Origin: Bacteroidales bacterium UBA2800
GTDB lineage: Bacteria > Bacteroidota > Bacteroidia > Bacteroidales > Paludibacteraceae
Direction: 5' to 3'
DNA length: 64,000 bases
NCBI GenBank assembly: GCA_002351925.1
Contig: DEHM01000019.1
Coordinates: 14,942-78,941, forward strand
Shown here: positions 12,662-63,658 of the stretch, piece by piece
How the letters are laid out: every line of letters starts with the position of its first letter
Position numbering within the stretch: position 1 is the first letter of the stretch
Made by a program: the position numbers and the translations under genes
The notes under the pieces: model-generated
What the model saw: only the letters and a program-made list of their open reading frames with translations
Told to the model about the DNA's origin: nothing
The model's database searches: none

Positions 12662-13339
12662 TTAGAAAATATAACTGATACCGGCTTGCAGGCCTATCGT
12701 GGTGTGATAGCGATAGTCCTTCTGGTGGTCCATATACGGCTTGGTGGCACTGATAACGCTGTAGTAACACACGGCTTCAATCTGCGCCAGCCAGTGCGGA
12801 TGGAACTTATACTCGATACCCAAGCCGCCGGTGTAACCGAAGTCACCTCGCTGGTCTTTGAGATTACTAAACACAATCTGTTCGCTGATGTTATGCCCCG
12901 TACCACTAATGGAGGAGTACTCCTGTCCTGAGCGTTTGCCGGTCAGCCACGCACCTCCATAGACGCCGAGGTCGACGAAACCGCGCACTTTCTGACCGCC
13001 GAAACTGAAATTGACCGTCACGGGGAAGAGCAGATAGTTGTTCACATAGCACATATCCAGTCTGTCTGCGTATGCACCGCGCGTATGACGGTAGTTACGC
13101 TGCGCAAAGAACGCACCGGCACGAAGGCCGAGCCAGTCGAAGAAGTTATACTGGGCTGTCAGTCCTGCCGTTCCGCCCCATTGTTCGTCAAAGCGATAGT
13201 CGGTGGCGTACTGTTTGTCCACTGAATAGTGGTTCCAAGTGGCACCGCCATTAACACCCAAACGCCATTGAGCCTGGGTAGTAATAGCCAATGGCGAAAG
13301 GAGCATCAACGCCACGAGAAACAAGAATTTTTGTCTCAT
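12662..13339 (-). CDS. Small outer-membrane beta-barrel (porin-family) protein
   Basis: 225 aa with a signal peptide ending AITTQAQ, amphipathic beta strands and a C-terminal ISYIF. Confidence 0.7.
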   Translation of the reverse strand: MRQKFLFLVALMLLSPLAITTQAQWRLGVNGGATWNHYSVDKQYATDYRFDEQWGGTAGLTAQYNFFDWLGLRAGAFFAQRNYRHTRGAYADRLDMCYVNNYLLFPVTVNFSFGGQKVRGFVDLGVYGGAWLTGKRSGQEYSSISGTGHNISEQIVFSNLKDQRGDFGYTGGLGIEYKFHPHWLAQIEAVCYYSVISATKPYMDHQKDYRYHTTIGLQAGISYIF

Positions 13340-41589: not shown

Positions 41590-41608
41590 CCCACGCAAAA
41601 AACGGGTG

Positions 41609-42056: not shown

Positions 42057-42161
42057 CGTCTCGTTTGGCAAATGGGCCGAAATGTTTGAATAGGAGTTAG
42101 CGAAATGGGAATCCTAAGAGTCACAGAATCAACCTTTTCTGCTAAAGCAGAAGGAAAACGG

Positions 42162-43380: not shown

Positions 43381-43447
43381 AAAATTCGAATCAGTTCTTG
43401 CATATGTGCGTGAAAAGCAGTACCTTTGCAGCGTTGATTCGAATTTT
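43381..43447. repeat. 13-bp perfect inverted repeat AAAATTCGAATCA / TGATTCGAATTTT bracketing the pilus promoter
   Basis: The arms are 43381-43393 and 43435-43447, separated by a 41-nt spacer that holds the -33 and -7 boxes. The arms extend to TAC(A)/GTA with a one-nt bulge. Confidence 0.95.
43398..43428 (+). promoter_or_regulatory. Promoter of the pilus operon (TTG-N20-TACCTTTG)
   Basis: TTGCATATGTGCGTGAAAAGCAGTACCTTTGCAG. It sits inside a 13-bp perfect inverted repeat (43381-43393 / 43435-43447). Confidence 0.65.
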
Positions 43448-43449
43448 GT

Positions 43450-44859
43450 ATGAACAGAGGAATAGGAAACATGTCAACGGTATGTCGTCTGGGAGCGTTC
43501 TTTTTTTGTGTGCTCTTGTCTTTAGCGGGCGCCTATGCGCAAGAAAACAGTAGCCAAGAGCCTCAAGAGCAGCTGGCGCAGCAAGAGAAGCAGAAGCGCG
43601 AAGTAGTGGCCCTGAAGACCAACCTGCTCTACGACGCTATCGCGACGCCCAACCTGGAGCTGGAGATACGTCTGACGCCTAAGTGGACGCTGGAGCTGGG
43701 TGCCGGTTTCAATCCCTTCCCGCTCGACGATACCCATTTCCCCAAGTGGCGCCATGTGTCGGCCTGGATAGCGCCGCGCTACTGGTTCTGCCATGTTTTC
43801 CATCGTGGTTTCCTCTCGTGGAACGTAGCCTATGCCCACTACAACGTGGCGGGTAACGCCTGGCCGGTCAGCTGGATGTACAAGCAGGTGAAGGACAGCC
43901 GTTACGAGGGCGACGCCGTCATGGCGGGTCTGAGCTACGGATGGCATTTCGCTATCTCGCCGCATTTCAGTATCGAGCTGGAGGGTGGAGTGGATGCCGG
44001 TTACTCGTGGTACAAAGAGTACGAGTGCAAGCACTGCGGTAGCAAGAAGGCGCAGAGCGGACGCTGGATGGTGCTGCCTAAGCTGGGCGTCAACCTGTCG
44101 GTGCCGCTGGGCGGCGACGAGGCGAGTCTGGCGCGCCGTTGCGACTGCGAGCGGCTGGAGGAGAAACCCGAGGAGCCCGCAGAGCCGCTGATGCCTGCCG
44201 AGCGTCTGGAGCCCGTCTGGGAGCAGCCTGCGCCGGTAGTGGCATGGGTGCCGCCTATGGAGGTGAAGGCCGACAACATGCGTCAGCTGCGTAGCCGTCT
44301 GCTGCGTGACGACGATGAGTATGAGACCTACGACGCGGGCATGGCCCTGAGCGCAGACCCGCGCAACGTGTTCCTTTTCTTCGATGTCAACGTCACGAAG
44401 ATGGACCGCTCGTTTATCCAGAACGACCTGCTCATGGATAGTATCATGCATATCCTGGGCGATGCCTGGAACGATCCCGACATCCGTATCACCCATATCC
44501 GTATCGTGGGCTTCGCGTCCTTCGACGGTAGGCTGAGCTACAACGAGCGTCTGGCCGGTAGCCGTGCGCAGACCATCAAGGAGTATATGCAGTCTATCTA
44601 CCCGCTGCCGGACAGCATATTCGATGTCTGCAACGGTGGCGAGAGCTGGGCAGAGCTCAAGTACGGCTTGCAGAACGTAGAGTTCGAGGGGCGTGATGAG
44701 GTGTTCGAGATCATCGACACCGAGCCCGATGCCGATACACGTGAGAAGAAGATCAAGGCGCTGCATAAGGGCGCTACCTACCGCTATATGCGCGACGAAC
44801 TGAAACATATACTTCGCAACCTTGGTTGCATTACCATCTATTGCGAAACGATTTATTAA
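43450..44859 (+). CDS. DUF3575-like beta-barrel plus OmpA-like C-terminal domain protein; first gene of the pilus operon
   Basis: Signal peptide ...LSLAGAYAQE. The N-terminal VALKTNLLYDAIATPNLELEIRL pattern resembles DUF3575. A Pro/Glu-rich linker follows, then a C-terminal OmpA-like region (VGFASFDGRLSYNERLAGSRAQTIKEYM). ATG 43471 is an alternative start. Confidence 0.7.
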   Translation: MNRGIGNMSTVCRLGAFFFCVLLSLAGAYAQENSSQEPQEQLAQQEKQKREVVALKTNLLYDAIATPNLELEIRLTPKWTLELGAGFNPFPLDDTHFPKWRHVSAWIAPRYWFCHVFHRGFLSWNVAYAHYNVAGNAWPVSWMYKQVKDSRYEGDAVMAGLSYGWHFAISPHFSIELEGGVDAGYSWYKEYECKHCGSKKAQSGRWMVLPKLGVNLSVPLGGDEASLARRCDCERLEEKPEEPAEPLMPAERLEPVWEQPAPVVAWVPPMEVKADNMRQLRSRLLRDDDEYETYDAGMALSADPRNVFLFFDVNVTKMDRSFIQNDLLMDSIMHILGDAWNDPDIRITHIRIVGFASFDGRLSYNERLAGSRAQTIKEYMQSIYPLPDSIFDVCNGGESWAELKYGLQNVEFEGRDEVFEIIDTEPDADTREKKIKALHKGATYRYMRDELKHILRNLGCITIYCETIY

Positions 44860-44898
44860 TCAACATAACACAACTAATTAACCCTATTTATTAACCAA

Positions 44899-46686
44899 AT
44901 GTTCAAACAAATGAAAAAAGTAACATTTTTTGCTTGCGCAGCTATGCTGGCAAGTGTTGCCCTGACAGGATGTTCGGGTAACGACGCTAACGTATCCGGT
45001 GGCGCTAATTATGTTCCGTCGGTAACGACCGACATCAACATCTCGTTGCCGGCCAATGCAACCGGTGGTCCTCGTAAGATGCCGGGAGATAAAGTGCAAG
45101 TCACCAATGGTGTAAGTGATTTCCAAGGTATTGGTAGCATCTGCCTTATTCCTTTCGGATTGGCAAAAGGCAATGTCGTTGATGGAGGTGACACAAAGCT
45201 TGGTACAAAGCTCAGTGGAATTACCGACATCGCTCTTACCAGTGAATTGGCAGCTACCAGTAAAGCTAAGAAGTACGCCGATGTATCTGTTCCGACCGGA
45301 ACATCCGCTTTCTTGTTCTATGCAGAATCGAAAGCTACTGGATCAAAGTTCGAGAAAGGTTCTTTGACTTATGTAGAGGCTACAACAACGGCTAATACCG
45401 CTAAGTTTGAGTTGGAGGCTATTCAGCCGAACTCTATCGCTACAAATGAGGCATTGGTTGGTTTGGTTGCTTATGTACAGTCTGTGGCTGACGCTACGGA
45501 TGGCACTAAGGCGTGGAAGAATTATACGACTTCTGACAACGAAGGTTTCAAAAAGTTGTTCGACGAGTACAAAACGACCAAGAACCTCAATTCGTTTAAT
45601 ATTCAGCGCATGATGAACGATTTGTTGGCTACTATCGCTTTGACGGAAAATACTTTGGCAGACAATATGCGTACGGCTATTAAGAGCAGTACCTACGTTA
45701 CCTACGACGACGGAACGAAAAAGGTTACCTTAAAATCGCCGTACAATGCCTTCCCTGCTTCCCTCAATTTGCCGGACGGTGCTATCGCTATTGCATACGA
45801 CAACGATCCGACCGATGGTAAGTTCGGTTCCTCTGCGGACAAGAATTTTGTTAATAGAAACGGCGTGGATGCTATGAATGTAGCTCCCACCCTCCAGTAT
45901 GCATATCCGTCTTCTCTTTGGTATTATGCCAACACGACCATCTATACCTCGAATGAGTCTGAGAATGCGGCTCTTACGGATGCCACTCATGATTGGGCTT
46001 GGGTACTTACCCAATATACCACCACGAACGGATCGGTTGATTCCAAAACCCGCTCTCTGGCATTGGTTAATCCGATTAACTACGCTGTAGGTCGTTTTGA
46101 TGTGAAAGTTAAATTGAGCTCCGCTTCTCTTGAGGATGCAGCATTACCTACTCCCGCTACTATCGCTTGTAACGAAGATGGCAAACGCTTCCAGCTGACA
46201 GGTGTATTGGTAGGTGGTCAAAAGAACGTTGGTTTCGACTTCACCCAGGAAACCTATGGTGGTAGTGCAACCAGTGCTTACACGATCTATGATAAGGAGA
46301 TGACGTCGACGATTAATGTAACAACCTCCTTTGGTTCGGCCAACAGCACCTTGGTTCTGGAGACTCCGACAAGTGGTCAAACAGGTGCTGATATCATGAT
46401 TGCTATTGAGCTGCTTAACAATACGACTTCTGACTTCATCGGTGCAGACGGTGTCGTTCCTGCAGGCGGCAAATTCTACCTGGTTGGTAAGCTGGTCGCT
46501 GCAAATGCAACTACTACGCCGAAGAAGGTGTTCTTGAAGGACTACACTACTACTGCTGAATTGAATATTGTAGACCTGAAACATGCTTACAATGGTATTC
46601 CGGACCTCCGTACTCCGACTCTGGAGATTGGTTTGTCTGTTGATTTGAACTGGACGGCAGGTACAACATACACAGTTAATCTCTAA
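44899..46686 (+). CDS. Mfa1-like major subunit of a type V pilus (lipoprotein precursor)
   Basis: 595 aa with lipobox ALTGCSG and an Arg-containing segment (GGPRKMPGD), as expected for Arg-protease maturation. The size, composition and gene order match Mfa1-family pilins. ATG 44911 (MKKVTFF) is an alternative start. Confidence 0.65.
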   Translation: MFKQMKKVTFFACAAMLASVALTGCSGNDANVSGGANYVPSVTTDINISLPANATGGPRKMPGDKVQVTNGVSDFQGIGSICLIPFGLAKGNVVDGGDTKLGTKLSGITDIALTSELAATSKAKKYADVSVPTGTSAFLFYAESKATGSKFEKGSLTYVEATTTANTAKFELEAIQPNSIATNEALVGLVAYVQSVADATDGTKAWKNYTTSDNEGFKKLFDEYKTTKNLNSFNIQRMMNDLLATIALTENTLADNMRTAIKSSTYVTYDDGTKKVTLKSPYNAFPASLNLPDGAIAIAYDNDPTDGKFGSSADKNFVNRNGVDAMNVAPTLQYAYPSSLWYYANTTIYTSNESENAALTDATHDWAWVLTQYTTTNGSVDSKTRSLALVNPINYAVGRFDVKVKLSSASLEDAALPTPATIACNEDGKRFQLTGVLVGGQKNVGFDFTQETYGGSATSAYTIYDKEMTSTINVTTSFGSANSTLVLETPTSGQTGADIMIAIELLNNTTSDFIGADGVVPAGGKFYLVGKLVAANATTTPKKVFLKDYTTTAELNIVDLKHAYNGIPDLRTPTLEIGLSVDLNWTAGTTYTVNL

Positions 46687-46707
46687 TCAATTAGCAACGC
46701 GTATAAC

Positions 46708-47718
46708 TTGAAACGGTTATTCGTCATATTATTTCCCTTGTTCTTCGTCGCATGCAACCTGATTGACGACAATCTGAGTGTGTGCGGTGAGGAACTGGTG
46801 ATCGACTATCAGCTGCAGCTGCGTACCGAACTGAGTACGCAGTTGCAGACTGAGTTGTCGGAAGAGACGGATAGCGTGGTGCGCGAAGCCTTGCGCGGGT
46901 GGTTGTCGCCGGTATTTACCGATAAGGCGAAAGATATTGATCTCCATTTCTTTAACAAGGAGACCGATGAGCTTCGTCACCGAATATTGGATGTGATTAA
47001 CGCGAGCCAGACCAGTTATACGCTTAAGTTACCCAAAGAGAACTACACCCATCTGGCCTTGGCGAATATCGCGGACAACAACCAGATGTCGCTGGCTGAT
47101 CGCGACCACTCGGCTACGATGTGCTTGAGCCTACCGACCTCGTCGGCCTTGAAGTCGATGAACACCGGAGTGTTCTCGGCGCGAATGGACATGACGGTGG
47201 ACGACAGCTCCAAGCAATTCAATGTGTATCTGTATATGGTGAATGCCGCTGTGGCGCTTGTAATCGATACTACTGCCTGCGACTCGCTGGTATCGCTAAG
47301 CGGAACGCTGAACAACATAGCATGCGGCTTCTCCATGCGCGACAGCGCGTACCGCTTTGATCGCGCCTGCGCCTTCGAACTGGAGAATGTGCCCATCAGT
47401 CGTGCAGCCGGTGCTCCGGCAGCGCAGGGACGTGCAAAAGCAGCGGACGTACCAGCTACGACGGCTTGTCTGGCTACAGTGGGAATGCCCTCTCGTGATG
47501 ATGAGCCCTGGACGCTGACGGTAAAAGCGACATTGATAGGCGACCGCTATACGACGAGTAAACTAACGATGAATGAATCGCTTGGAGCAGGTGAGTTACG
47601 TATCATTCGTATACGGATGAATGAAGACGGTTCGTTGATGCCGGTACAACATACAGAGGCAAGCGTGAGTATCACGCTCGACTGGCAGGACGGCGGATCG
47701 CATGAGATAAACTTATAG
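46708..47718 (+). CDS. FimB/Mfa2-family pilus anchor/length-regulator subunit
   Basis: TTG start. Lipoprotein signal MKRLFVILFPLFFVACN. 336 aa, directly after the major pilin as in mfa1-mfa2 loci. Confidence 0.6.
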   Translation: MKRLFVILFPLFFVACNLIDDNLSVCGEELVIDYQLQLRTELSTQLQTELSEETDSVVREALRGWLSPVFTDKAKDIDLHFFNKETDELRHRILDVINASQTSYTLKLPKENYTHLALANIADNNQMSLADRDHSATMCLSLPTSSALKSMNTGVFSARMDMTVDDSSKQFNVYLYMVNAAVALVIDTTACDSLVSLSGTLNNIACGFSMRDSAYRFDRACAFELENVPISRAAGAPAAQGRAKAADVPATTACLATVGMPSRDDEPWTLTVKATLIGDRYTTSKLTMNESLGAGELRIIRIRMNEDGSLMPVQHTEASVSITLDWQDGGSHEINL

Positions 47719-47720
47719 CA

Positions 47721-48788
47721 GTGAAAAAAATCGCGACATACATATTATTATTGATTCTCCTTGTGAATGTAGGATGTTCACCGGAAGAGAAAACGAAGGT
47801 GGGTATGCCGTTCTCATTGTGCCTTCCGGCAACGGAGGTACATTCGGCGAGCCGTGCCCCTATGCGTCGCGTTTTGAGTGACCCGGGTATGACCGAGTAT
47901 TTTTCGTTGCCGCATTATTTATATATTATCGTTCTTAAAAAGAACGGAGTCAACTGGGAACTATGGAATACAATGGAGCGTACGTTAACAGATGAGGACT
48001 GGCTGTTAACGCATTATAATGGTACGCTCGAAACAGAAGGAGATAGCGTATATCAATATTTAGGGCAATTGAATCTCCTGCTGTCCAATGAAAAAATAGA
48101 GGGGCGTGTATATGCTATAGCCTCTGCAGTACCTCTGACGCTTAGTCAACCTATAGGTACGATATCCAGCCTTAGTGATGTACTGAATCTTACGTTCTCT
48201 ACATCATCCGAAACGATGCAAGAGAATTTACAACACATATATACAACACCTTATAACTATAAAGTATCAGGTGACTATTATGGATCTTTTAGTAGCGCAA
48301 CCCATCGGGTACCGCATGTGAGCCTTATGCTTTACCATGTGGCGGCGAAGGTAGATATCATCTGGAATGTGCCTAATGATGATCGTATAAAAGCCAATCC
48401 TGCTGAGGCGGTACGTCTTACTTATATGGAGGTGCGCCGTCTGTACAATGGGGATGCGTATTGCTTCCGCCCGCTCAAAAATGAGATGGCTTCTCTACCG
48501 ACTTCGGGAGGATACGACATTCCGGATATGGTAAGAGCAAACGATGAAGGCCTCTGGTGGGAAGGTCGAACCTATTTCTACACCATTCCGTATTACGTGG
48601 CGGGAGAGGCAAATTATTTTCCCGTTCAAATGGTGCTTTGCACGAATGGCACTGCCAAAGCGGATGGGTATAAACTGACACTGAAACAACCATTTGATAC
48701 AACGGCAGTTTTTGTGCCTTGGGTAAGGGGAATATTTAATCTCACGCAGCCCTTGGCGAATACAGAAGAAACTAAGACTTGGGATTGA
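47721..48788 (+). CDS. Fimbrillin-fold accessory lipoprotein (Mfa3/Mfa4-like position)
   Basis: GTG start 2 nt after the upstream stop. Lipobox LVNVGCS, an Arg cluster (SASRAPMRR) and a YHVAAKVDIIW motif of the kind seen in FimA/Mfa-family pilins. Confidence 0.55.
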   Translation: MKKIATYILLLILLVNVGCSPEEKTKVGMPFSLCLPATEVHSASRAPMRRVLSDPGMTEYFSLPHYLYIIVLKKNGVNWELWNTMERTLTDEDWLLTHYNGTLETEGDSVYQYLGQLNLLLSNEKIEGRVYAIASAVPLTLSQPIGTISSLSDVLNLTFSTSSETMQENLQHIYTTPYNYKVSGDYYGSFSSATHRVPHVSLMLYHVAAKVDIIWNVPNDDRIKANPAEAVRLTYMEVRRLYNGDAYCFRPLKNEMASLPTSGGYDIPDMVRANDEGLWWEGRTYFYTIPYYVAGEANYFPVQMVLCTNGTAKADGYKLTLKQPFDTTAVFVPWVRGIFNLTQPLANTEETKTWD

Positions 48789-48790
48789 GA

Positions 48791-48822
48791 ATTTGTAGAT
48801 TTGAAGATTTGAAGATAAGACG
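48791..48822. repeat. Octad repeat ATTTG(T/A)AG x3 plus ATAAGACG at the junction with the giant ORF
   Basis: atttgtag atttgaag atttgaag ataagacg. It contains the candidate TTG start at 48809. Confidence 0.9.
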
Positions 48823-51800
48823 TTACATAGTATTATTAGTAATGTTCGTGTGGGCGTGCGCATGTGCGTACGCGCAGACCAACGATACGATTCGTTATGT
48901 CCATCCGGATGGCTCTTATAGCAACAACGGACGCAGTTGGGCAACGGCGAAGAACCGCGTGCAGGACGCTATCAACGATCTGCACGAATATATGCTTACC
49001 TACGGCAAGACCTCCGGTTCCGTATATATCGCCGCCGGTACATATACGCCGACCGAATCGACCGAGTCGAGTGGTGGTTCGATGCTCAACACGTCCTTTA
49101 AGATCTACGCCGGTATCCATGTCTATGGTGGCTTCGACCCCGATGCTCCGGAGTCCCGTCCGGGCCTGCGTATCATGGCCAACGACAAGACCTGCGAGGA
49201 GAACTGGTCCGACCCTTCGGGTATCGGTACTACCTCCGGTACGGAGATTGCTTCACAGTGGGATTTGAAGCACAAGACTATCCTTACCGGAAACCACTCC
49301 GGTGCAGCCGTTTCCTTTGTGTTCGACTCCATCCGCGGACGATATACCACCACCTATCCGGCCAGCTCCTACCACGTAGTCTGGTTCGCTACCAATGGCA
49401 AATACGACACCTCAGACGATGCGCTCAAGGACCATTACAAGCCGCTGCAGTATCCGGCGTCGCTGGACGGATGTGTGATCTCCTCGGGTAATGCTTCCAG
49501 CCGTAGCACCACTATCCGCGAGCATACGGCCTACGGTGGCGGTGTGTATATGGTGGGCAATAGTTCGATGCGCGCCTGTATCGTGGAGCGCTGTAACGCT
49601 ACGCTGCGAGGCGGTGGTATCTACGCCGACGGCGGTGGTGACATCGAGTTCTGCTATATCCATACCTGTCAGTCGCCCGGTGTGGGTGTGGTACAAGGCT
49701 ACGGTGGCGGTGTGTGTATCGACCATGAGGGCTCTATCGGCCACAGCCAGATTTCCTGCTGTGCCGCTCGTTGCGGTGGTGGTCTGATGATTAGCCACGT
49801 CAGCGACGAATATCCGTGGACCGAACGTGTGGCTGCGGCTGTGCTCGGCGTCAACGACACTATCACCAGCAATTACTCGCCTCATACGACCGCATGCGTC
49901 ATCAATAATAATACCGCCAATGCCGAAGGCGGCGGTATCTATCTCGCCGAAGGCGGAACGGTCAACCATGCCACGGTCTGCGGCAACAACTGCTCCGGTC
50001 TGGACGTCACCTACTACGGTCGTCGTCACGGTCGTACGGGCGGTATCTATGTCCGCAACTGCGGTATGATGTTCAACTCCGTCTTCTGGGGCAACCGTTG
50101 CGATGCGAACAACGATATCCAGTTCGCTTCCGTGCGTCAGAAGACTGGTGCAGCCGCTGCGGGCTTTGAGATCTTCGCCTACCATACCGCCTTCATGAAC
50201 CACGATATCTCCGACTGGACCGGCGTGACCAAAGAGGCGGTGTACTCGCTCGATCATAGTAATATGCCGACGCAGAGTTCCAGTGCCAACCACCCCTGTT
50301 TCTTCCATCCGACGGTAGACCCCAATAACTGGGACAGCGTGAACACGACGGTAGGTATCTACGGCGCGGGTGTGCTGATGCATATGCGCCCTGTGGACTA
50401 TCCCGGTCCGCGTATCTGGCACTTGACCTCCTATTCCGGCTTGGACCAAAAGGGCGTGCAGTGGAACGAAGCTGTACAAGGTGCTTCCCCGTGGCTGATT
50501 CATGCGCATACGGACTATGGCGTCGTATCTAACCCGTACGAACCGGTATCAACGCTCGGTGCCTTGGTGCGTAAACCCGATCAGTTGAGGTATGAACTTG
50601 TCATTCCTCAATCCAAGGAATACGACAGAAACCCGGCGCCCATCCCGACGCTGTTCGTGGATCCGAATAGGAAGGGCAGCTATGATGAGAATGGTAATTT
50701 CGATCCGCAAGATCACGAAGGTGACTCATGGGACGCACCTATCAAGGACCTTGGTGAGGCCATCTCCTTCTTCCGCCAGTATCTGGTAGCCGATGAGGAT
50801 AACCGTGAGAACCACCACTATATGATTCCGGCCTTGGACGAAGACGGTAGGCCTACCGGTGAACCGACACGCTATGACTACGTCCAAATCCTCGTCAAAG
50901 AAGGTACGCTGACCACGGTGGGACCGGGTAACTACCTCGACCGTAATATCCGTACGGCGGCTGTTCGTATAGAGAGTCATATGCGTATGTACGGCGGATA
51001 TCCCTCTACGCTGACCGGTACGAATACCGAGGGACGTAACCCGCGTGAATACAAGTCCATCATCACGGCGAACATCACTGGAAACACGGGAGATGCGGGA
51101 TACCGCAATAACTCGGCGCACGTTATTGCGATGGTCAATGCCGAACATGCAATCGTGGATGGTTTCACGCTCTCCGATGCCAATACGCATAATGTCTATC
51201 TGTCTAATTCGGCCAAAGCTGGTGGCGGTCTGCTGCTCAATAACGCTTCTATCCCTCAAGCAGAGCGTATCGACATGACCGGTAACCAGTTGCGTAATAG
51301 CGTCATCAACAACTGTACCTCGCCCAAAGGTGCGGCCGTCTATGTGAATGGAGAGTGGGAGAGATGGGACGGAGAGATCTGTTATGCTGAGTTGATGCTC
51401 GTCAACTGCGTGGTACGCAATAATACCGCGGACTATTCGCTAGAAGAAGGAGATTATGTCAACGACCACGGTATCATCACCGCAAACGGTCGTGCCTACG
51501 TCCATGTGGAGCACTGTACCGTCGTCAACAACGTGGGCTTTCCTTTCAAGGCCGAGAGTAAAGATACTGAAACCGACGAACCGATTCAATGTCATCATTC
51601 CGAGCATGGATTCCAGACGCCTTACCACGGGTATATCCGTGTGGATAACTCGATCATATTCTGTAACTCCGACCGCTCCGTGGAGGACCATTCTAACCTC
51701 GGTGAAGTGGCAAACGTGCTGTCGGTAAACCCGGACGGACAGGATCATGTGTTCGGTAAATACAATATGTTCGATGCCGATATCGTGCTGCATAAAAGCG

Positions 51801-57800: not shown

Positions 57801-60800
57801 ACAATATCCCTATCGTGGTAGAGAACTGCTTCTTTACCAATAATATGGCTGGTAACGGTGGCGCTATCTACTCCAATGGCGGTATCTATGCCTACGGCAA
57901 CCGCTTCACGCAGAACTACTCGCAGGGCCCGATAACTAAGCTCGACCAGAACTATATCCCCTGGACAGCCGGTGGTTGTATCGCTACCAATGCCTTCTGC
58001 GGTGTGTCCAATAGCTTGTTCGACAACAACGAGGCGCGCCGTGGTCTCTATCCGCTCAAAGCCGTATCGGCCGATCCTATCCCCAATGCAGATGCACGTC
58101 AGGGATTCGGCGGATGTCTCTCTATTGCCGATAAGTCCACCACGCGCGTCGTCAACTGCCACTTTATGAAGAACAAAGCGGTGGCCTATTCCGCCATGTA
58201 TAACTTCTATCCCAACAACCGCTATGTGGGCGATGCAGATCATCCACGGTCCGACTCGATGCAGTATGCCTTCAATACCATCTTCTGGGGTAACGAGGTA
58301 TTCGAGGTGGATCACCTGACCGACTTAGAGCACGGTACGGAGGGCTGGGATGCAGAAGACGATGCCTTGCTCACGGCCTCGAGCGCCACCTTCGACACCA
58401 ACTACAAAGCGTCTCGCGCCGGTGTGTTCCACTACGACGGCGAAGAGTGGGATAAATACGAGAAACTCTTCCACGAGTACGACAGTATCTACAACTATTG
58501 GACCTCGTCCGACCGACCCTTGGGACAGCGAACACCGTTCCATCCTACCGCCTTGGCAAAACTTGCTGAACTGCGAGCGCAGGGAAATAAGATAGAGGGA
58601 CTCTATTTCTGCTCCTATCGTAAGACCTATGGTCCTACGGGTATGAAGCCGACTTCGGAGGGATACCTGCTCACACCGGAAGAACACGCTGCATGGAAAG
58701 ATCCGCGAAGCAGAACGGTGAAGACCAAGACCGATGCCAACAACGATAAGGTGGAAGACTATACCGACATGTGGACGCAGGTCAGCGGAAACAACAATAC
58801 GCTTATCAACCGTATCAATACCGCCACCGACGGACCTAACTTCCGACAACCGTCCTTCGTAGCCGGTATCGATGGCTATATGCAGAATGCCGACTGGCTT
58901 CAGGCCCGTATGAACCTCACTACCGACCAAGGCTGGGGATTCCTCAAACAGACCGTAGAACGCGGTATATCCTACTATATCACCCGTCATACGGGTACCA
59001 CGCAGTTCGATAATGCAGCCGATGCGTTAGAGGCGGCGCAGAAAGCACATCCGGGCGCCACCGCGGCCGACGTCTTCCCTGTCTACGGTCACCCCGTTGC
59101 TTCGTTCCGGCCGGCAATAGAGCAGACCGATACGGCCATGTACAACTTCCTGGCATGGCGCTACGGACGTATGATGTCCGAGTCCAACGCCCCGCTGCCG
59201 CTGGGCGACCAGTACTACATGAACTATACCCAATCGTCGAGCGACTCGGAGACAAGCGGAAACATGGACCGTATATCCAAACACCCGAAGATGGGCGAGA
59301 CCGAAGTCTATATCGACCTCGGTATATACGAATACCAGTACGTCCAACTCGATATCAAGGGACAGGAGATCGATACCGTCTGGGTAGCTACCAAAGCCAA
59401 AGATCCGCTCCACCAGGACGGTCTGACGTGGGAGACGCCTACTACCGATCTGCAGGCGGCTATCGACCTGCTCATGTCCTCCCACAACAACCACGATAAG
59501 TACGTCTGCTTCTTGGGCAACGAGGAAGGCGAGACCTTCTCGCCGCAGAACGTCATCGACAACCGTCGTGGCTATATCATCACCTCTTCGTCCCATTCGC
59601 CGCTGCTGCCCGATAGCGCCCAGACCGACTACGACTACGGCGTCAATAGTCTGAACTTCCTCGGCGGATATAGCTTCGATGTCAAGACCGCGAAGCGTGA
59701 CCCGCAGAGCCATCCCGTAGTCATCGAGATGCCTGATGTCGGCAATGAGAACCAGCGTAACCAGCTCTTTATCATCGAGGATATGACCCGACAGATGCTC
59801 CAGGCCAACTTCGTCGGCAAATATACCTCGCGCGACTCCGTCGTCATACCTATCGTCTTCGATGGTATCACCTTCATCAACCCGTACTCCACGAAAGACC
59901 CGGCACCGGAAGGAACGCTTAATAACCTCGGTGGTTCGATGAGCAAGAAGGGTGGTGCGGCTATCTACTATCGTTGGCAACGCCGCTACGAGGACGACGG
60001 TACCCATACCGGTACGCCTAATTTCCGCTTGGCGCTCCATCCCGACTCGGCCCTCATCGACGGACGTAAGGTCACGCTGCCTAAACTGACGATATCCAAC
60101 TGTATCTTCATGGATAACGGTAAGCGTACGACGAACCATGCCGAGCGTTCGCCGGCCGTACGTATTGACCATGGTGGCGGTTCCAGCCTTATCGTCAATA
60201 CCCTCTTCCATTCCAATGCGGGTGCGCCCGTCTATGCGCGTACCTATGATATTCTCGAACAAGAGAACGACCTGGCTGCCGTACCAAACGATGTCGTGAT
60301 GGTCAACGTGACGTCGGCCCTCAACGACGGACATATACGTCTCGAGTCGGAGAATAGCGAGGTGCACAACTCTCTCATCTGGATGGATGACCTCCATAAC
60401 GACACGACAATCCAGCTCCAAATGGGTGCTTCCGACCAATGGGATAAGACTACCAACAAGAATCGCGAAGGCATCGACGGACGAATGTCCTATAACGCCG
60501 TATGGGGATGCTTCCAGGTACCGGCATGGGGTGAAGAGAATAGTACCGGTGATCCGGTGGGCTTTAACCACCCGCTGTCTTCCGACAACAACGACGTTTA
60601 TAAGGGACCGGGCTTCCTGTCGCCGCACGTCACGGCTACTACTTCCGAGCAACGGCGCGAGCGCTCGTTCCGACTCAACCCCTCTATCCGTACCCACGAG
60701 AAAGCCAATCGGGAGATATACCTCAGCCGTGTCTTCTTCCGCGTTTATCCCGACACCTGCGCCGCAACCCACAATAAGTACTGGCGTCGCTCCAACGGAT

Positions 60801-63658
60801 TCAAGTCGCTCTCATTTACGGGTATAGTCGACGAGCTGGCTAACGACTCCGACCTCGCCTCCAAACCGCGTGTGTCCGGTGAAGGCATGGAGCGTGGTGC
60901 CTACGAGTGTCTGGCCGTCCTCCAGCGTGTGCTCTACGTCCGTCCGGAACTGCCTGCCTCCAGCGCTGGCGACGGCTCGTCCTGGGAGAACGCCTTCGGA
61001 CAAGGACAACTCCAGAACGCCATCGATGCCGCCGCGGTATATACCTATATGTACCAGAATCTGCCGCGGGAGGACAGAAAAGCCTATGTCTTCGTCAAAG
61101 GTACCGGTAGTTCCACCGAGCACTACGATATCGTGGCGCGTGATGGCGTCTATGTATATGGCTCCTTGCCCGGCTACTTCCTCGACGAGGCTTGGAAGGA
61201 TGAGGATAAATTTACCAACGAGGAGTGCCACCGCTATGTCAACTACGTTCGTGCCACAACGCTGGGTGTAGCGGCTCCGAATGCACCGCAGACCAAGATC
61301 AACTCTATCCGCATCACCGGTGATGAATTCAAGACAGGCTTCCTGCTGGACGGATTTGTCATCACCAACCCCACCCGCGAGTTGACGATGTCGCCCGTGC
61401 TGATCGACAACGATAGTGCGGCTGTGCGCAACTGTCTCATCGTCGACAACCGCATCGCCGGTCCCGACCACCCGATAGCCAATGTGAAGCACGGCTTGCT
61501 CTACAACTGCCTCTTCTACAACGACTCCGCAGCGGTGATGGTCAAGGTGGGCGCCGACGGACTGGTGCTCAACAATACCATTGTGACGAATAGTTCGGAT
61601 GTGACTCCCATGGACGATACCGAGGCAACAGCCGGAGCCGTGCAGAACAACATCAGCGGACGACTGTCGTCGCTCACCTGCTTCGCGCCATACATGACAG
61701 CCAACAACCCCTACACGCTGCCCGCATACCTGACCAACCACGAGCCGCTCGCCTTCCAACTCCATGAGCAGAGTATGATGCTCAATAGCGGAACAATGGA
61801 TACCGCACTGCCGTCCCTCTTCGACGACTATAAGGCGGATAATATCATCAACTTCAAGTGGGACCGCGATGTGCTCGGCAACCCGCGTAAGATCAGCTCG
61901 TCGGTCGACAAGGGTGCACTCGAGACTTGGTATGTGGCCAAGAACAAAGGCCAGGAGATAACGGCCATCACCAACCGTGTGCCTTATACCGAAACCGATG
62001 ACGTGGCGCGCGATACGGCTTACACCAAGAACTTCGGCGGACACTATTATCCGCACGCCGGTTCGGTAGTCTATCTCATGGATAGCAGTGCCATGTCGAT
62101 GCAGTATGCGACGGCCGATGACTTCAAGGACTTCCGCAATCAGGATATCGTCTTCAGTCCGGGATTCCTGCTGCTCAAACCCGCTGCGTCGTTCTACGGC
62201 AACGGCCATCTCGCCCAGATAGAATATATCGCGGCAGAGAAGCGCTTCAAGAACCAGCGCTATTCGATGACTGCCTTCCCGTTCGACTACTCGAAGGCCA
62301 ATATCACTATGTCGCATTACGATCCGGGAACAGGAGCTCTCAACTCTCAACTCTCAACCTTCAACTTTAATACCTACCGCTACAACGGTGCTGCGCGTTC
62401 GGCCAAGGACTATGTCTTCCAGACCGACAACTCCTCGCTCTGGCAGTCGGTAGCTACACCTAACCGCACCGCCACCGACGGCTACCTCATGGACTTTGGT
62501 TCCACTCTTACCGATACCGTCCTTCGCTTCAACGCCTTTGCTCCGGTGGACAACCAATATGTCTATACCGAGGGTGAAGATGAGGACTCCGACGGCTATC
62601 CCGACGACAAGTCGGTCTACCTCACCCAGTACGACAACCGCACCGCCGGTACCGGCTCCGAACTCAACTTCACCAGCATGGAGAACATGGGCTGGAACAT
62701 GAAGGGTCTGCCCTGGCTCGTGTCCAACTACCGCACCGATACCATCCTCTGGGCCGATAACTTCCTGCGCCAGATGTATATCCCCCATGTGATCTACCAG
62801 ATGGACGGCGCAGGCGAGTATATCACCGAGGGCGACAAGGTCTATACCTCGCGTTCGTGGGATCGCGGTTCTACCGTCTCCATGGGTAACGCGTTCTTCA
62901 CCCAGACGGCTACCAAGCAGGATCAGGAAGAGGTGATCTTCCATCTGCCCTACTATGCACGCAACGAGAAAGCCAGTCGTCCGCTCTTGCGGATGGTGGC
63001 ACGCCGACCCAATAGTGCGCCGACACGTCAGGGCGCAAGTGCCTCTACCGTGATGTCCGATATCCTTACCGTCATGCCCGATCCCGAGGCCGCTAAGACG
63101 GTGGTCTATGCGTACGGTCGTGATGGGGTCAAGTGGCAGTCCGACGCCGGCACCTCCCAACTCTATATGCTCGATTCGAAGCGACAGTCGCGTATCTCGC
63201 TCCTCGGTGCTGCGCCGACCGAAGTCGACATACCGCTCGGCGTATCTATACCTTCCGACGGGGCATTCTCCTTCTCGCTGCCCGAGAAAGAGGCCTTTGC
63301 CGGCTACGACTTCGTATGGCTCATCGACTACGAGCGCAACCGCTATACCAACCTCATGGACGAGGACTACGAGGTAGCCATCCCGCAGGGCGAGAACAAC
63401 CATCGTTTTGCCTTGCGTATCGGTGGCTTCCCCAAGACAGACGAGAAGGGACAACGCCAGTATATCGTCTTTGCCGACGATGGTCATCTGTACGTACGCG
63501 GACTTGTGCCCGGCGACCGTATCACCGTCTATTCCGCAGCTGGACATCTTATCTGCTCGGCCGTAGCCGGAGGTACCGAGTGGTCCACGCCGCTGGCATG
63601 GCAGGTGGGCTACGTAGTACGTGTCAACGAGAAAGCGTACAAAGTGATTTATCGATAA
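48809..63658 (+). CDS. Giant secreted surface protein (~4,950 aa): signal peptide, at least 7 tandem right-handed beta-helix (Pmp/choice-of-anchor-Q-like) modules, non-helix inserts and a T9SS C-terminal sorting domain
   Basis: The frame is uninterrupted from 48779 to 63658. In-frame TTG 48809 gives MKIRRYIVLLVMFVWACACAYAQ, a good signal peptide. TTG 48779 and ATG 48842 are alternative starts. There are more than 20 GG[GA][ILV][YF]-type turns. The module-opening motif resembles YV.P.G.G.DGSSW...LQ.AI. The last ~68 aa match the T9SS CTD pattern. Confidence 0.85.
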   Translation: MKIRRYIVLLVMFVWACACAYAQTNDTIRYVHPDGSYSNNGRSWATAKNRVQDAINDLHEYMLTYGKTSGSVYIAAGTYTPTESTESSGGSMLNTSFKIYAGIHVYGGFDPDAPESRPGLRIMANDKTCEENWSDPSGIGTTSGTEIASQWDLKHKTILTGNHSGAAVSFVFDSIRGRYTTTYPASSYHVVWFATNGKYDTSDDALKDHYKPLQYPASLDGCVISSGNASSRSTTIREHTAYGGGVYMVGNSSMRACIVERCNATLRGGGIYADGGGDIEFCYIHTCQSPGVGVVQGYGGGVCIDHEGSIGHSQISCCAARCGGGLMISHVSDEYPWTERVAAAVLGVNDTITSNYSPHTTACVINNNTANAEGGGIYLAEGGTVNHATVCGNNCSGLDVTYYGRRHGRTGGIYVRNCGMMFNSVFWGNRCDANNDIQFASVRQKTGAAAAGFEIFAYHTAFMNHDISDWTGVTKEAVYSLDHSNMPTQSSSANHPCFFHPTVDPNNWDSVNTTVGIYGAGVLMHMRPVDYPGPRIWHLTSYSGLDQKGVQWNEAVQGASPWLIHAHTDYGVVSNPYEPVSTLGALVRKPDQLRYELVIPQSKEYDRNPAPIPTLFVDPNRKGSYDENGNFDPQDHEGDSWDAPIKDLGEAISFFRQYLVADEDNRENHHYMIPALDEDGRPTGEPTRYDYVQILVKEGTLTTVGPGNYLDRNIRTAAVRIESHMRMYGGYPSTLTGTNTEGRNPREYKSIITANITGNTGDAGYRNNSAHVIAMVNAEHAIVDGFTLSDANTHNVYLSNSAKAGGGLLLNNASIPQAERIDMTGNQLRNSVINNCTSPKGAAVYVNGEWERWDGEICYAELMLVNCVVRNNTADYSLEEGDYVNDHGIITANGRAYVHVEHCTVVNNVGFPFKAESKDTETDEPIQCHHSEHGFQTPYHGYIRVDNSIIFCNSDRSVEDHSNLGEVANVLSVNPDGQDHVFGKYNMFDADIVLHKSDVHKPSGFFQEDYHVPIPGDFLPDGISSHFTDDIAAIPSDSAARDNKCFLTRTDMNAATYPTFVNPSRNVGHSTSGDKALYGGNVAYTPMTTNPVVNAAGRDEYTTYYDYDRSDVTKRDRGGAPDVGAIENTDLPEAGSVIYVTPEGAGKRDGSSWSNAIAGNTVYVLDSIAGPALATGDQIDAEPTCNRVLDSEGNPIHTTNEKYNGGWGRVWFTEKKTGATSTTTVTKTWTTEKNVYDNGTRAGEEESIQDNVYSESTNTISTSGSAQEGFVAGYDYDPRYPYGEISGASRTFWRANPYPGNASSYNINSFTAGCKANGWINNTRAERYVGGLQYAVEKASARNKANKDSVQVWVGAGQYTDYKGFIMRDSVSVYGGFPVRKYPAPGMAERQALMSDPDVVSIPKSKPAKDFDATDYETILQISDVNPKGTNTALNTDAVKYWDDDYSYSEATQTTQYEYKSRTIVHHYEYNEVEQVGEDVQDTYMQYANMTKSGGTNVVTTKSTSYSGDNSTVFVTFGTEGDLDCWHVSYPNKENFVVYVETNSNATGKTRDIYNPSNNQKIPAPNTYSGNWIFLGNGSMAGLNLWQEMRNMPAGQYRMSFDLGGEYKNKIFANDPLNIFVCVVDGNGEGISDTISLKSRTNNKDQNRNSAYRFTVDFNLPSAGNAVFKLFIGDGNKNTKANNPTYGTDTGVDPDEIPCLYVNKENKNVCPSKEADKWGSYNPNAREFWLSNIHIKPLIPAGTYGLISTDDNTVEKGDVPHEDPVISETKIYTPQTHRTTLRKRVLTMPDVCVPTFGGGGIGDPVTMAYAFTQDALPHTDRVKGPSKDKRTAATLAKQEDLHYVEYNDVNWDGFTIRHGFLYDESMAHGGGAGVNMYEGAHLRNCIVIDNLSACSRIKGGGIFCDGATSTIEGCFVLNNASKGGTQVSQQQVFAGGMFMYEGTCFNSLFANNYSYGSAGGLGFCVGRFFNNTIAYNTATLVEAGSSSISGGAISLATASNPNLFVANTIIFGNNGIAIRDRNTAVGNVNPFLYCYIQSAASQPYNATKQNVTNWTPSATGNYGIGNTFLNGVAPSAENTPFAADFDEEGNYVAGRAASLNDFRLRDDVPCVNKGTEEFAAEFYTALIHKGKTDSQIRNSFIYKSVEAAVLPDNDVAFAHRVQDCQIDMGAYEYNAAYNIMPDTTTHPGHAIFYTTYVAPGGDASARSPENAACMQKLQLVLDAAGRYKNRLMTEAQYDKGNTTDFVSQDPNKYWTVEVWLEGNNEGTTTTNEYKEGYVPTRSTRHSEATYQDNTLDYSFMVPHGVHVMGGFQDNFYHYEDAAGNRYTAPGKGRFIVDDRDPLTFRTVLSGNITSSTGAKGQTYHVVTFVNDLFSPDDEKIIGDGNQLATLTNERDRAVLDGLFLMDGKANAPDPEGQIGGACVVTDYAHVRNCVIQNNSADLYGGGLYLKPRALVSGTIVKYNTANVGGGIYVEAPAVSPKMNDSLAYVFYTTVCENTARASAGGLFFANTYARINSSAIWHNSANDNANVAGNFARSADSIPYPLNCCAVESRRLEGQGNIELSPREKEGVRWDRQDPFNAILYYPIEMSSTLARAGISYSEWDNFCATFATLDSIDIAGVSRKRWTSDGSERGFAWGSDTLVTKNNDVIDIGARAINKDFQVHVDTNHVMHRIYVVHTELIDSRAARALQDNPLDNDVANMYRQLGSCIYNPFHRLSDAFEYVIAARMAQPDKYRNTRFEIFVEQGTYYPFRDAYRRQGAVRMNTFLVPEAVLVVGGVDSRPADHKYGQEGFKSPFSTVHMIGDGSDVAIEGTTDPSTGEPYKIHFEYTDSIRLRDARHRPMRDNNLNSVIEPWELERQTILSGNAVAGEDFTHVYHVITCHADNRYVGPRPIKYGAINPTYGYPGHEDEQVLTEPLPDDVPERWVEENDLSILARTIGFDGLQITGGYANHIDSTDAKDVFVTKTYFRGGGIFVDGNWWEGAEDTPPDMTQPAQNNIPIVVENCFFTNNMAGNGGAIYSNGGIYAYGNRFTQNYSQGPITKLDQNYIPWTAGGCIATNAFCGVSNSLFDNNEARRGLYPLKAVSADPIPNADARQGFGGCLSIADKSTTRVVNCHFMKNKAVAYSAMYNFYPNNRYVGDADHPRSDSMQYAFNTIFWGNEVFEVDHLTDLEHGTEGWDAEDDALLTASSATFDTNYKASRAGVFHYDGEEWDKYEKLFHEYDSIYNYWTSSDRPLGQRTPFHPTALAKLAELRAQGNKIEGLYFCSYRKTYGPTGMKPTSEGYLLTPEEHAAWKDPRSRTVKTKTDANNDKVEDYTDMWTQVSGNNNTLINRINTATDGPNFRQPSFVAGIDGYMQNADWLQARMNLTTDQGWGFLKQTVERGISYYITRHTGTTQFDNAADALEAAQKAHPGATAADVFPVYGHPVASFRPAIEQTDTAMYNFLAWRYGRMMSESNAPLPLGDQYYMNYTQSSSDSETSGNMDRISKHPKMGETEVYIDLGIYEYQYVQLDIKGQEIDTVWVATKAKDPLHQDGLTWETPTTDLQAAIDLLMSSHNNHDKYVCFLGNEEGETFSPQNVIDNRRGYIITSSSHSPLLPDSAQTDYDYGVNSLNFLGGYSFDVKTAKRDPQSHPVVIEMPDVGNENQRNQLFIIEDMTRQMLQANFVGKYTSRDSVVIPIVFDGITFINPYSTKDPAPEGTLNNLGGSMSKKGGAAIYYRWQRRYEDDGTHTGTPNFRLALHPDSALIDGRKVTLPKLTISNCIFMDNGKRTTNHAERSPAVRIDHGGGSSLIVNTLFHSNAGAPVYARTYDILEQENDLAAVPNDVVMVNVTSALNDGHIRLESENSEVHNSLIWMDDLHNDTTIQLQMGASDQWDKTTNKNREGIDGRMSYNAVWGCFQVPAWGEENSTGDPVGFNHPLSSDNNDVYKGPGFLSPHVTATTSEQRRERSFRLNPSIRTHEKANREIYLSRVFFRVYPDTCAATHNKYWRRSNGFKSLSFTGIVDELANDSDLASKPRVSGEGMERGAYECLAVLQRVLYVRPELPASSAGDGSSWENAFGQGQLQNAIDAAAVYTYMYQNLPREDRKAYVFVKGTGSSTEHYDIVARDGVYVYGSLPGYFLDEAWKDEDKFTNEECHRYVNYVRATTLGVAAPNAPQTKINSIRITGDEFKTGFLLDGFVITNPTRELTMSPVLIDNDSAAVRNCLIVDNRIAGPDHPIANVKHGLLYNCLFYNDSAAVMVKVGADGLVLNNTIVTNSSDVTPMDDTEATAGAVQNNISGRLSSLTCFAPYMTANNPYTLPAYLTNHEPLAFQLHEQSMMLNSGTMDTALPSLFDDYKADNIINFKWDRDVLGNPRKISSSVDKGALETWYVAKNKGQEITAITNRVPYTETDDVARDTAYTKNFGGHYYPHAGSVVYLMDSSAMSMQYATADDFKDFRNQDIVFSPGFLLLKPAASFYGNGHLAQIEYIAAEKRFKNQRYSMTAFPFDYSKANITMSHYDPGTGALNSQLSTFNFNTYRYNGAARSAKDYVFQTDNSSLWQSVATPNRTATDGYLMDFGSTLTDTVLRFNAFAPVDNQYVYTEGEDEDSDGYPDDKSVYLTQYDNRTAGTGSELNFTSMENMGWNMKGLPWLVSNYRTDTILWADNFLRQMYIPHVIYQMDGAGEYITEGDKVYTSRSWDRGSTVSMGNAFFTQTATKQDQEEVIFHLPYYARNEKASRPLLRMVARRPNSAPTRQGASASTVMSDILTVMPDPEAAKTVVYAYGRDGVKWQSDAGTSQLYMLDSKRQSRISLLGAAPTEVDIPLGVSIPSDGAFSFSLPEKEAFAGYDFVWLIDYERNRYTNLMDEDYEVAIPQGENNHRFALRIGGFPKTDEKGQRQYIVFADDGHLYVRGLVPGDRITVYSAAGHLICSAVAGGTEWSTPLAWQVGYVVRVNEKAYKVIYR
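62337..62371. repeat. Heptad repeat CTCTCAA x3 perfect plus 2 degenerate, inside the giant ORF
   Basis: ctctcaa ctctcaa ctctcaa ccttcaa ctttaat. It encodes ALNSQLSTFNFN. Confidence 0.92.
63452..63655 (+). other. T9SS C-terminal sorting domain (CTD) coding segment of the giant ORF
   Basis: QRQYIVFADDGHLYVRGLVPGDRITVYSAAGHLICSAVAGGTEWSTPLAWQVGYVVRVNEKAYKVIYR fits the Por_Secre_tail pattern (..I.VY...G.L.........L..G.Y.V.V......K.I.). Confidence 0.75.

Follow-up and report, generated by a model that had tools for sequence, protein, structure and literature searches.

The locus described here raises the question of what a giant protein, predicted to be exported by the T9SS, contributes as the last product of a cluster of genes for pilin-like lipoproteins, and whether it forms part of the pilus. 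The window (the whole 64-kb stretch of Bacteroidales bacterium UBA2800 DNA that was analyzed) contains a region best explained as a type V (Mfa-like) pilus operon in the chromosome, with one Bacteroidetes promoter and an AraC regulator upstream. The features on which this reading is based are given below with their coordinates, strand, and content.

40426-41598, minus strand: second AraC gene, divergent
42105-43349, plus strand: AraC-family regulator gene, directly 5' of the operon
43381-43447, no strand: perfect 13-nt inverted repeat, arms AAAATTCGAATCA and TGATTCGAATTTT, flanking the operon promoter
43397-43428, plus strand: Bacteroidetes-type promoter, with the -33 element CTTG at 43397-43400 and the -7 box TACCTTTG at 43421-43428
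43450-44859, plus strand: g1, signal peptide, DUF3575 outer-membrane beta-barrel, Pro/Glu-rich linker, and weak OmpA-like C-terminal domain
44899-46686, plus strand: g2, putative stalk pilin, 595 aa, lipoprotein with lipobox LTGC
46708-47718, plus strand: g3, Mfa2/FimB-type anchor pilin, 336 aa, TTG start, lipobox FVAC
47721-48788, plus strand: g4, predicted accessory or tip-type pilin, 355 aa, GTG start, lipobox NVGC
48809-63658, plus strand: g5, giant secreted protein; frame open from 48779, likely start TTG 48809
48809-48874, plus strand: Sec signal peptide of g5, predicted cleavage between AYA and Q
48875-61933, plus strand: body of g5, predicted to hold about seven divergent Pmp-like right-handed beta-helix modules with cap motifs
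~52406-54208, plus strand: largest lineage-specific insertion of g5 (about residues 1,200-1,800)
61934-63145, plus strand: conserved C-terminal module of g5, with motifs PGYLLLK.GASLYGNG, ENMGWNLKG.PWLVS, and AFFTQTA
63146-63655, plus strand: predicted RemA/RemZ-like pre-CTD domain and type A T9SS CTD of g5, the CTD being the last ~67 aa (63455-63655)

Operon layout, promoter, and first gene

The five ORFs g1 to g5 are arranged in tandem on the plus strand, with intergenic spacings of 39, 21, 2, and 20 nt, the last value assuming that g5 starts at TTG 48809. One promoter followed by five closely spaced genes of the same strand had been described in the first-pass annotation, and this layout was confirmed, with the -7 box beginning at 43421. 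The -33 element has one mismatch to TTTG and stands 20 nt 5' of the -7 box TACCTTTG. The strict pattern TTTG-N15-25-TAnnTTTG was observed 8 times in the window against 0.56 expected, every time 5' of a gene; therefore, the Bacteroidetes promoter pattern is informative in this genome. The operon promoter is close in sequence to other promoter matches of the genome, e.g., TTTGCATACATGCGAAAAAAGTAGTACCTTTG. Before g5, a single -7-like box (48796) with a poor -33 element was found 13 nt 5' of the start codon. The scan for sigma-70 promoters and terminators detected no terminator-like site 3' of g5.

The operon promoter is enclosed by the arms of the inverted repeat, the right one stopping 2 nt 5' of the g1 ATG. 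This geometry is kept in the closest relatives (loci L006, L039, and L050), where the arms differ in sequence and retain their complementarity; the repeat was not found in more distant loci, and the exact ATTCGAAT pair is present in no relative. The regulator gene directly 5' of the operon matched Pfam HTH_18 (4.7e-18) and HTH_AraC (6.6e-10), and an AraC gene occupies the same position in loci L001-L005 and in 18 of the 57 testable loci. Apart from the two AraC-type regulators, the neighbors in the window are housekeeping genes (DnaE, Mfd, YidC, fumarase, RseP, Dxr, and RNase Y), so the locus is chromosomal and not obviously mobile.

The product of g1 matched PF12099 (DUF3575) at 2.1e-43 over residues 51-216, and a g1 homologue is located upstream of the pilin genes in 57 of 63 loci. 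The DUF3575 half of its previous description as a DUF3575/OmpA-like protein is therefore secure, while the OmpA match of residues 339-389 (4.3e-4) was below the cut-off. A DUF3575 gene also stands beside Mfa1-type genes in the B. thetaiotaomicron region BT4227-BT4236 (PMC10434189). In the literature searched, DUF3575 was otherwise met only in gene lists, this B. thetaiotaomicron case being the single one beside Mfa1-type genes.

Three lipoproteins of a putative type V pilus

A lipobox Cys, as expected of the lipoproteins of a type V system, is present in g2, g3, and g4, and the type V fold was indicated for g2 and g4 by Foldseek searches with AlphaFold (AF2) models and for g3 by the Pfam Mfa2 family. 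Recognizable lipoboxes were found in 59 of 63 members of the g2 family, in at least 49 of 64 members of the g3 family, and in 70 of 71 members of the g4 family. Sequence searches of the PDB with the three proteins and with their family profiles returned nothing.

The g3 protein exceeded the Pfam Mfa2 cut-off narrowly (1.9e-4, 21.6 bits with a cut-off of 21.2), the match covering positions 23-271 of the 277 in the profile, and 18 of its 36 homologues from related loci matched the same family (best 6.1e-9). Its description as an Mfa2/FimB-like anchor encoded at 46708 is thus upheld. No conserved Arg site follows the lipobox Cys of g3, and its C-terminal motif, V-T-L-D-W-K-x-G-G, is similar to that of g2.

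For g2, no match to Pfam, NCBIfam, or PDB sequences was obtained, and a 34-sequence profile was likewise null against the PDB. The protein has an A1-like strand, a conserved R/K loop (GGPRKMPG), a helical insertion at about residues 184-261, and the conserved C-terminal motif E-L-G-L-S-V-D-L-x-W; a basic residue about 35 aa past the lipobox Cys is conserved in about 80% of the family. With the AF2 model (pLDDT 82), the best Foldseek matches in the PDB were all type V pilins, 4gpv (1.7e-4, probability 1.0) being followed by 3up6, and the proteins listed were BACEGG_00536, BACOVA_04078, PG0181, Mfa4, FimA, Mfa2, and Mfa1. The TM-scores were low (0.28-0.46), as may be expected of a protein that has two domains and, as modeled, a helical insertion. 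Support for g2 as a type V pilin comes from this predicted fold. Of the proposal that gene 44899 encodes an Mfa1-type lipoprotein pilin, the lipobox LTGC and the predicted pilin fold stood, whereas all pilin HMMs failed. The g2 family comprises more than 557 members and is unnamed; its database homologues carry no Pfam domain.

The g4 protein has a conserved RAPxRRVxGDPG loop and lacks the C-terminal motif of g2 and g3. It matched no curated pilin family, and its database homologues (the family has 452 members) are without a Pfam domain. Foldseek of the AF2 model (pLDDT 78) retrieved 4gpv (2.6e-8), PG0181, BDI_3522, Mfa4 (5dhm), and Mfa3 (5nf4), each with probability 1.00, a value reached by 19 of the 20 best matches; the E-values of the type V pilins, Mfa4 and Mfa3 included, lay between 1e-6 and 3e-8. 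Comparison of the g4 and g2 profiles with hhalign gave a probability of 93.8% (E=1.7e-7). These matches to type V pilins, including Mfa3 and Mfa4, together with the lipobox NVGC, bear out the view of g4 as a third pilin-fold lipoprotein.

The three families differ in two further respects. About 80% of the g2 family and 80-90% of the g4 family keep a basic residue in a loop, modeled with low confidence, that follows the first strand, and no such residue is conserved in g3; the C-terminal motif (GLSVxLxW / SVTLDWK), which may correspond to the donor strand that stalk and anchor pilins have and tip pilins lack, is common to g2 and g3 and absent from g4. According to the sequences, this distribution of loop and motif matches the published pattern of stalk, anchor, and tip pilins (PMC8512630; PMC12632263), with g2 as the likely stalk, g3 as the anchor, and g4 as the likely tip.

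Architecture of the giant protein

From TTG 48809, the uninterrupted g5 ORF of 4,959 codons encodes a protein of 4,949 aa with a roughly estimated mass of about 540 kDa. Its signal peptide, which had been noticed before, was read directly from the sequence as MKIRRYIVLLVMFVWACACAYA followed by Q and is canonical; the homologues have the same N-terminal layout, consisting of a signal peptide, usually an A-Q junction, and then a conserved IRYV motif.

In the body of g5, N-cap motifs (DGxSW..A...LQ.AI) and C-cap motifs (D.GA.E, 'choice-of-anchor Q'-like) recur along with rung motifs of the type GGG[IV]Y. Sub-threshold matches to Beta_helix or Chlam_PMP were obtained in 5 of 10 segments (E=0.009-0.06), and the sole NCBIfam match was to NF041518 ('choice-of-anchor Q'), at 5.5e-4 and also sub-threshold. 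The whole protein matched no Pfam family, and phmmer detected no relevant PDB chain at E<=1. Among 11 full-length family members scanned, 3 matched PF13229 (Beta_helix), the best at 3.7e-20. The proposal that g5 is built of beta-helix modules thus has moderate support from the cap motifs and from the matches of the relatives, its own matches being sub-threshold. Chlamydial Pmp and autotransporter adhesins are comparable in their GGA/GGG-[ILV] rungs and right-handed beta-helix passenger-like modules; unlike them, the giant has no autotransporter barrel, appears to depend on a CTD and the T9SS for export, and would hold about seven modules in one chain.

Several domain types were not detected. 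VWA was absent from g5 at E<=0.1 for the whole protein and at E<=1 in ten segments, and none was found in 10 full-length relatives or among the 11 full-length family members scanned, which is in agreement with the first-pass observation that no MIDAS/vWA motif could be seen in the giant. No lyase or hydrolase family was matched by g5 or its relatives at the thresholds used. Self-BLAST was negative for internal repeats at E<1e-3, as was the search for tandem repeats in the DNA; a repeat-array adhesin is ruled out by these two results. The protein is collinear with 10 full-length relatives of 3,667-4,816 aa (29-51% identity) and, lineage-specific insertions aside, is evenly conserved from end to end.

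Among the best 150 matches listed, the conserved C-terminal module was confined to the C-terminal end of giants or their fragments. It showed no profile similarity to the g2 and g4 pilin families, and a pilin-like strand-exchange domain at the end of g5 is accordingly unsupported.

The last 100 or 200 aa of g5 itself matched neither PF18962 (Por_Secre_tail) nor TIGR04183, even at E<=10. Homologues were considered at the family level: 68 were recovered with the last 600 aa of g5, and 31 were included in the alignment. TIGR04183 matched 13 of these 31 at E<=0.01, always in the last ~50 aa; two aligned homologues were above the curated cut-off (23 bits), and one of these two is named a T9SS type A sorting-domain protein by NCBI. 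The C-terminal family profile, compared with the PDB, matched RemA (8gl6_D, 3.9e-15, residues 1256-1423 of 1436) and RemZ (8gl8_D, 6.1e-14, residues 960-1100 of 1114), both of them proven type A T9SS substrates. To our knowledge, neither RemA nor RemZ is encoded with pilin genes. The study from which 8GL6 and 8GL8 originate describes type A substrates trapped in the F. johnsoniae T9SS translocon, RemZ among them, and a near-invariant Lys in the CTD (RemZ K1110), four residues before the end (PMC10994853). The g5 protein ends with ...KAYKVIYR and has a conserved Lys 4 residues before the C-terminus, the counterpart of RemZ K1110. The giant and RemA/RemZ are thus homologous at the profile level over the last ~165 residues (pre-CTD domain and type A CTD), with the Lys kept, and differ in that RemA and RemZ are 1,100-1,450 aa long and RemA is a lectin-type gliding adhesin (PMC10994853). 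At the family level, a type A CTD can be regarded as established by profile and alignment. The T9SS CTD assigned to g5 in the first-pass annotation is retained on this basis, although the g5 C-terminus alone fails the CTD models.

No T9SS gene (SprA/Sov, PorV, PorU, or PorK-N) was present among the 20 context ORFs scanned in the 64-kb window, and the T9SS of the host is therefore assumed from taxonomy. The genomes of Paludibacter and Prevotella carry T9SS genes.

Conservation of the locus and the place of the giant

A profile search of 1.84 billion representative proteins with the g5 C-terminal module yielded 254 at E<=1e-30. Most of the full-length giants listed are 3,600-5,600 aa long and carry the module at the very C-terminus, and 94 of the 142 newly retrieved representative proteins with this module have at least 3,500 aa. 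Module carriers of 900-3,500 aa were considered as possible Mfa5-sized relatives and rejected, since all of them begin mid-protein and are fragments. When one genome per species was scanned for the N-terminal module of the giant, relatives were detected in at least 154 species-representative genomes, and 80 of the loci were retrieved for comparison. Most carriers are rumen Bacteroidales. The closest belong to rumen Bacteroidales and Paludibacteraceae MAGs (identity up to 81%), and the more distant ones to Prevotellaceae, including the cultured Hallella mizrahii, Hallella absiana, Segatella bryantii DSM 11371, and three Prevotella strains.

Synteny was evaluated by comparing HMMs of g1-g4 with the translated upstream DNA, and only loci with enough upstream sequence were counted. 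In 73 of 77 testable loci, a g4 homologue precedes the giant by no more than 600 nt; g3 was present in 62 of 72 and g2 in 58 of 66. The median distance from the end of the g4 frame to the start of the giant match is about 60 nt in the relatives, and the pilin-plus-giant arrangement exists in at least 70 species-representative genomes. Since the flanking genes vary between lineages and differ from locus to locus, it is the cassette that forms the conserved unit. One subgroup of Prevotellaceae has four or five other genes, on the same strand and coding for 370-430 aa each, in place of g2 and g3; g4 and the giant are kept in these loci, as is g1 in most of them. Hence, the g4-giant pair is the conserved core. 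It had been anticipated that a giant with its own promoter and unlinked to pilin genes in all relatives would contradict the pilus-operon reading. The reverse was observed, with linkage in almost every relative examined, and this linkage is the strongest new support for that reading. All checkable parts of the first-pass reading were upheld, those on g2 and on the CTD of g5 through predicted fold and family-level comparison beyond the HMM test that had been proposed.

The closest parallel in gene order is the P. gingivalis mfa1-mfa5 cluster, where a stalk pilin, an anchor, and an accessory pilin likewise come before a final gene whose product carries a Sec signal and a T9SS CTD. Both sets of pilins are lipoproteins with a basic cleavage loop (a putative one here) in the stalk and accessory pilins and none in the anchor. 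The P. gingivalis cluster has two accessory pilins (Mfa3 and Mfa4) compared with one here, and the DUF3575/OmpA-like first gene is extra in the present operon. Mfa5 is about 1,200 aa long. The giant is about four times longer, is without vWA and Ig-like domains, and is apparently made of beta-helix modules; its placement in the Mfa5 position as a fourfold larger protein is correct, since it is the last gene of the cluster and has 4,949 aa. Among the traits of the Mfa5 family, g5 thus has the last place in an mfa-type cluster and, at the family level, a T9SS CTD, and it lacks vWA. Mfa5 requires its CTD and the T9SS and is located at the pilus tip (PMC8512630); in a review of the Mfa system, mutant data are taken to suggest, not conclusively, that the vWA domain links Mfa5 to other accessory proteins.

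Two other systems share parts of this organization. Like the giant as predicted here, SprB of F. johnsoniae is a very large, T9SS-exported, fibre-like surface protein encoded in an operon with dedicated accessory genes. It is repeat-rich, its CTD is of type B, and it relies on a carrier of the PorP/SprF type; the giant differs in its predicted type A CTD, its pilin-fold lipoprotein partners, and its lack of internal repeats. In the Bacteroides type V loci with DUF3575/DUF3868 genes, a DUF3575 gene adjoins Mfa1-type pilin genes and the same tip-stalk-anchor logic applies (PMC12632263); there, however, the adhesive ligand-binding domain is fused to the C-terminus of the tip pilin, whereas here a separate giant would arrive via another secretion system.

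On these grounds, we lean towards an association of the giant with the pilus, in the Mfa5 slot of a type V system, an assignment made by analogy. In the mechanism proposed, g2 would be the stalk pilin, g3 the lipid-anchored Mfa2-type terminator and anchor, and g4 an Mfa3/Mfa4-like accessory pilin. The three pilins would reach the cell surface as lipoproteins, the N-terminal strand of g2 and g4 would be removed at the conserved Arg/Lys loop, and strand exchange would polymerize the pilins onto the uncleaved g3 anchor. The T9SS would carry the giant across the outer membrane separately, and g4 would capture it at the distal end of the pilus, as may be supposed from Mfa5, so that a very long adhesive fibre is displayed. 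The role of adaptor is proposed for g4 in view of the Mfa5 analogy and of its near-constant pairing with the giant. For this host, we infer the cleavage, the polymerization, and the T9SS dependence, and above all, by analogy with Mfa5, that the giant is physically joined to the pilus. Pilus association is spoken against by the absence of vWA, a C-terminal module of the giant that is unlike pilins, and the ability of type A cargo to dispense with a pilus. The failure of the g5 C-terminus with the CTD models, the lack of T9SS genes in the window, and the negative pilin HMMs and low TM-scores of g2 also count against the overall model.

The giant might instead be a T9SS cargo of the usual type A kind that, once its CTD has been removed, is bound to lipopolysaccharide or released, and that is only co-regulated with the neighboring pilus as both serve attachment. 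Type A substrates exit the translocon bound to PorV, after which they are either released or attached to lipopolysaccharide at the surface (PMC10994853), and the giant has neither a vWA nor a pilin-like domain, both of which would suit this explanation. We nevertheless consider it doubtful, as co-regulation alone leaves unexplained the g4 adjacency in 73 of 77 loci across several families, the persistence of the g4-giant pair despite the swap of the stalk and anchor genes, and the very short g4-giant gaps (20 nt here, a median of about 60 nt in the relatives). The invariance of this pair, with g1 usually kept and g2 and g3 replaceable, would also be compatible with a short outer-membrane pedestal or assembly platform made of the pilin-fold lipoproteins and g1, the giant itself being the fibre; the fixed collinear architecture of the giant family is what would be expected of a structural fibre. 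Such a pedestal is improbable given that g2 has the full set of stalk-pilin features (lipobox, basic loop, and C-terminal motif common to the anchor) and that its family is as widespread as that of the giants.

A different function was considered as well, namely, that the giant is mainly an enzyme array of pectate-lyase-fold modules for plant cell-wall breakdown in the rumen and not an adhesin. Pectate lyases do have the right-handed beta-helix fold, and the carriers are mostly rumen Bacteroidales, but no lyase or hydrolase family was matched at the thresholds used, and the GGG[IV]Y rungs and the Chlam_PMP and choice-of-anchor Q similarities are motifs of Pmp-type surface proteins, which makes an enzyme array very unlikely. 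This explanation concerns activity only and is compatible with pilus association. Finally, many database homologues are fragmentary, as would be the case if the long ORF had arisen through misassembly or misannotation or belonged to a decaying gene. That possibility is effectively refuted by the unbroken frame of 4,959 codons, the 94 of 142 module carriers with at least 3,500 aa, and the full-length collinearity with relatives, cultured isolates included; the fragments start mid-protein at contig ends.

As regards the proposed pilus association, the principle that an mfa-type cluster can include an accessory protein dependent on the T9SS is already known. The full-text literature search found work on Mfa5 and nothing on a giant beta-helix T9SS cargo in pilus loci, in line with the first-pass statement of being unaware of any described type V pilus with such a component. 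Undescribed in the literature searched are the giant component, its size and architecture, its partner pilin g4, and the breadth of its distribution. A more specific proposal is put forward tentatively: g4 and the giant may be a dedicated hand-over pair that places a type A substrate of ~540 kDa on a vWA-free type V pilus tip. The outcome would be a composite of pilus stalk and beta-helix fibre, widespread among Bacteroidales of the rumen and gut and perhaps used for attachment to plant particles or other cells. If this were true, T9SS-type V pilus coupling would be a general design and not a peculiarity of P. gingivalis, and Segatella bryantii and Hallella would become cultured models of the g4-giant hand-over.

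The entry of a T9SS substrate into a type V pilus has so far been studied only with Mfa5, in one oral pathogen. With the present locus, candidate pilus-associated T9SS cargo gains a second class, which is much larger and free of vWA; the tightly conserved partner g4 and the cultured carriers of this class make the hand-over testable by comparison and genetics. Three large unannotated families were mapped: g2 (more than 557 members), g4 (452 members), and the giants (254 representatives at E<=1e-30). For the rumen carriers, surface attachment is central to fibre degradation, and pili and the T9SS may cooperate well beyond the single known case of P. gingivalis.

Promoter region and flanking genes

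The pilus operon is preceded by two back-to-back AraC-family regulator genes, and its promoter is flanked by a perfect inverted repeat. Two AraC matches were also observed at each of the related loci L016 and L039. The features of this region and the counterpart repeats (locus coordinates) are as follows:

40426-41598 (-), AraC-family regulator gene
42105-43349 (+), AraC-family regulator gene
43381-43393 and 43435-43447, arms of the 13-nt inverted repeat
L006 4570-4632, L039 2434-2496, and L050 about 1950-2020, counterpart inverted repeats

The arms are separated by a 41-nt spacer, and the right end of the repeat lies 2 nt 5' of the start codon of g1, the first gene of the operon. The same geometry was found in the three closest relatives (L006, L039, and L050), whose arms differ in sequence yet stay complementary, i.e., show compensatory change. 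The repeat might act as paired operators of the adjoining AraC regulator or as a leader hairpin silencing read-through transcripts. It could also be a very small invertible element, which is less fitting since the spacer seems too short.

Elsewhere in the window, adjoining genes encode a DUF3078 protein (9963-11312, -) and an S41 peptidase (11319-12770, -) among otherwise housekeeping neighbours; this pair is unrelated to the pilus-operon finding.

Start codons and an insertion in the giant protein

The apparent starts of three consecutive genes are TTG for the anchor gene g3 (46708), GTG for the accessory pilin gene g4 (47721), and TTG for the giant gene g5 (48809). In the aligned g3 and g4 homologues of loci L001-L005, the first residue, at the equivalent position, is Met. 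The giant protein contains a lineage-specific insertion:

about 52406-54208, residues ~1,200-1,800 of g5

It is missing from 70-93% of ten aligned relatives, and its sole match was weak and DUF5013-like (E=0.014). The insertion may be an added ligand-binding domain.

Cassette composition among related loci

In seven Prevotellaceae-type loci (L052, L056, L070, L073, L075, L076, and L085; upstream 10 kb), g4 and the giant gene are retained, as is g1 in most of them. The space between them is taken up by four or five further genes on the same strand, each about 370-430 aa, which the HMMs of the putative stalk pilin (g2) and g3 did not recognize and which may represent an alternative pilin set.

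A protein of the g1 type (43450-44859 in the window), in which an OmpA-like tail follows a DUF3575 barrel, is encoded by the opening gene of the cassette in 57 of the 63 loci. Bacteroides thetaiotaomicron is not known to have a T9SS. In this species, DUF3575 adjoins Mfa1-type genes (PMC10434189). The DUF3575 protein may serve in the assembly or anchoring of type V pili as a so far uncharacterised component.
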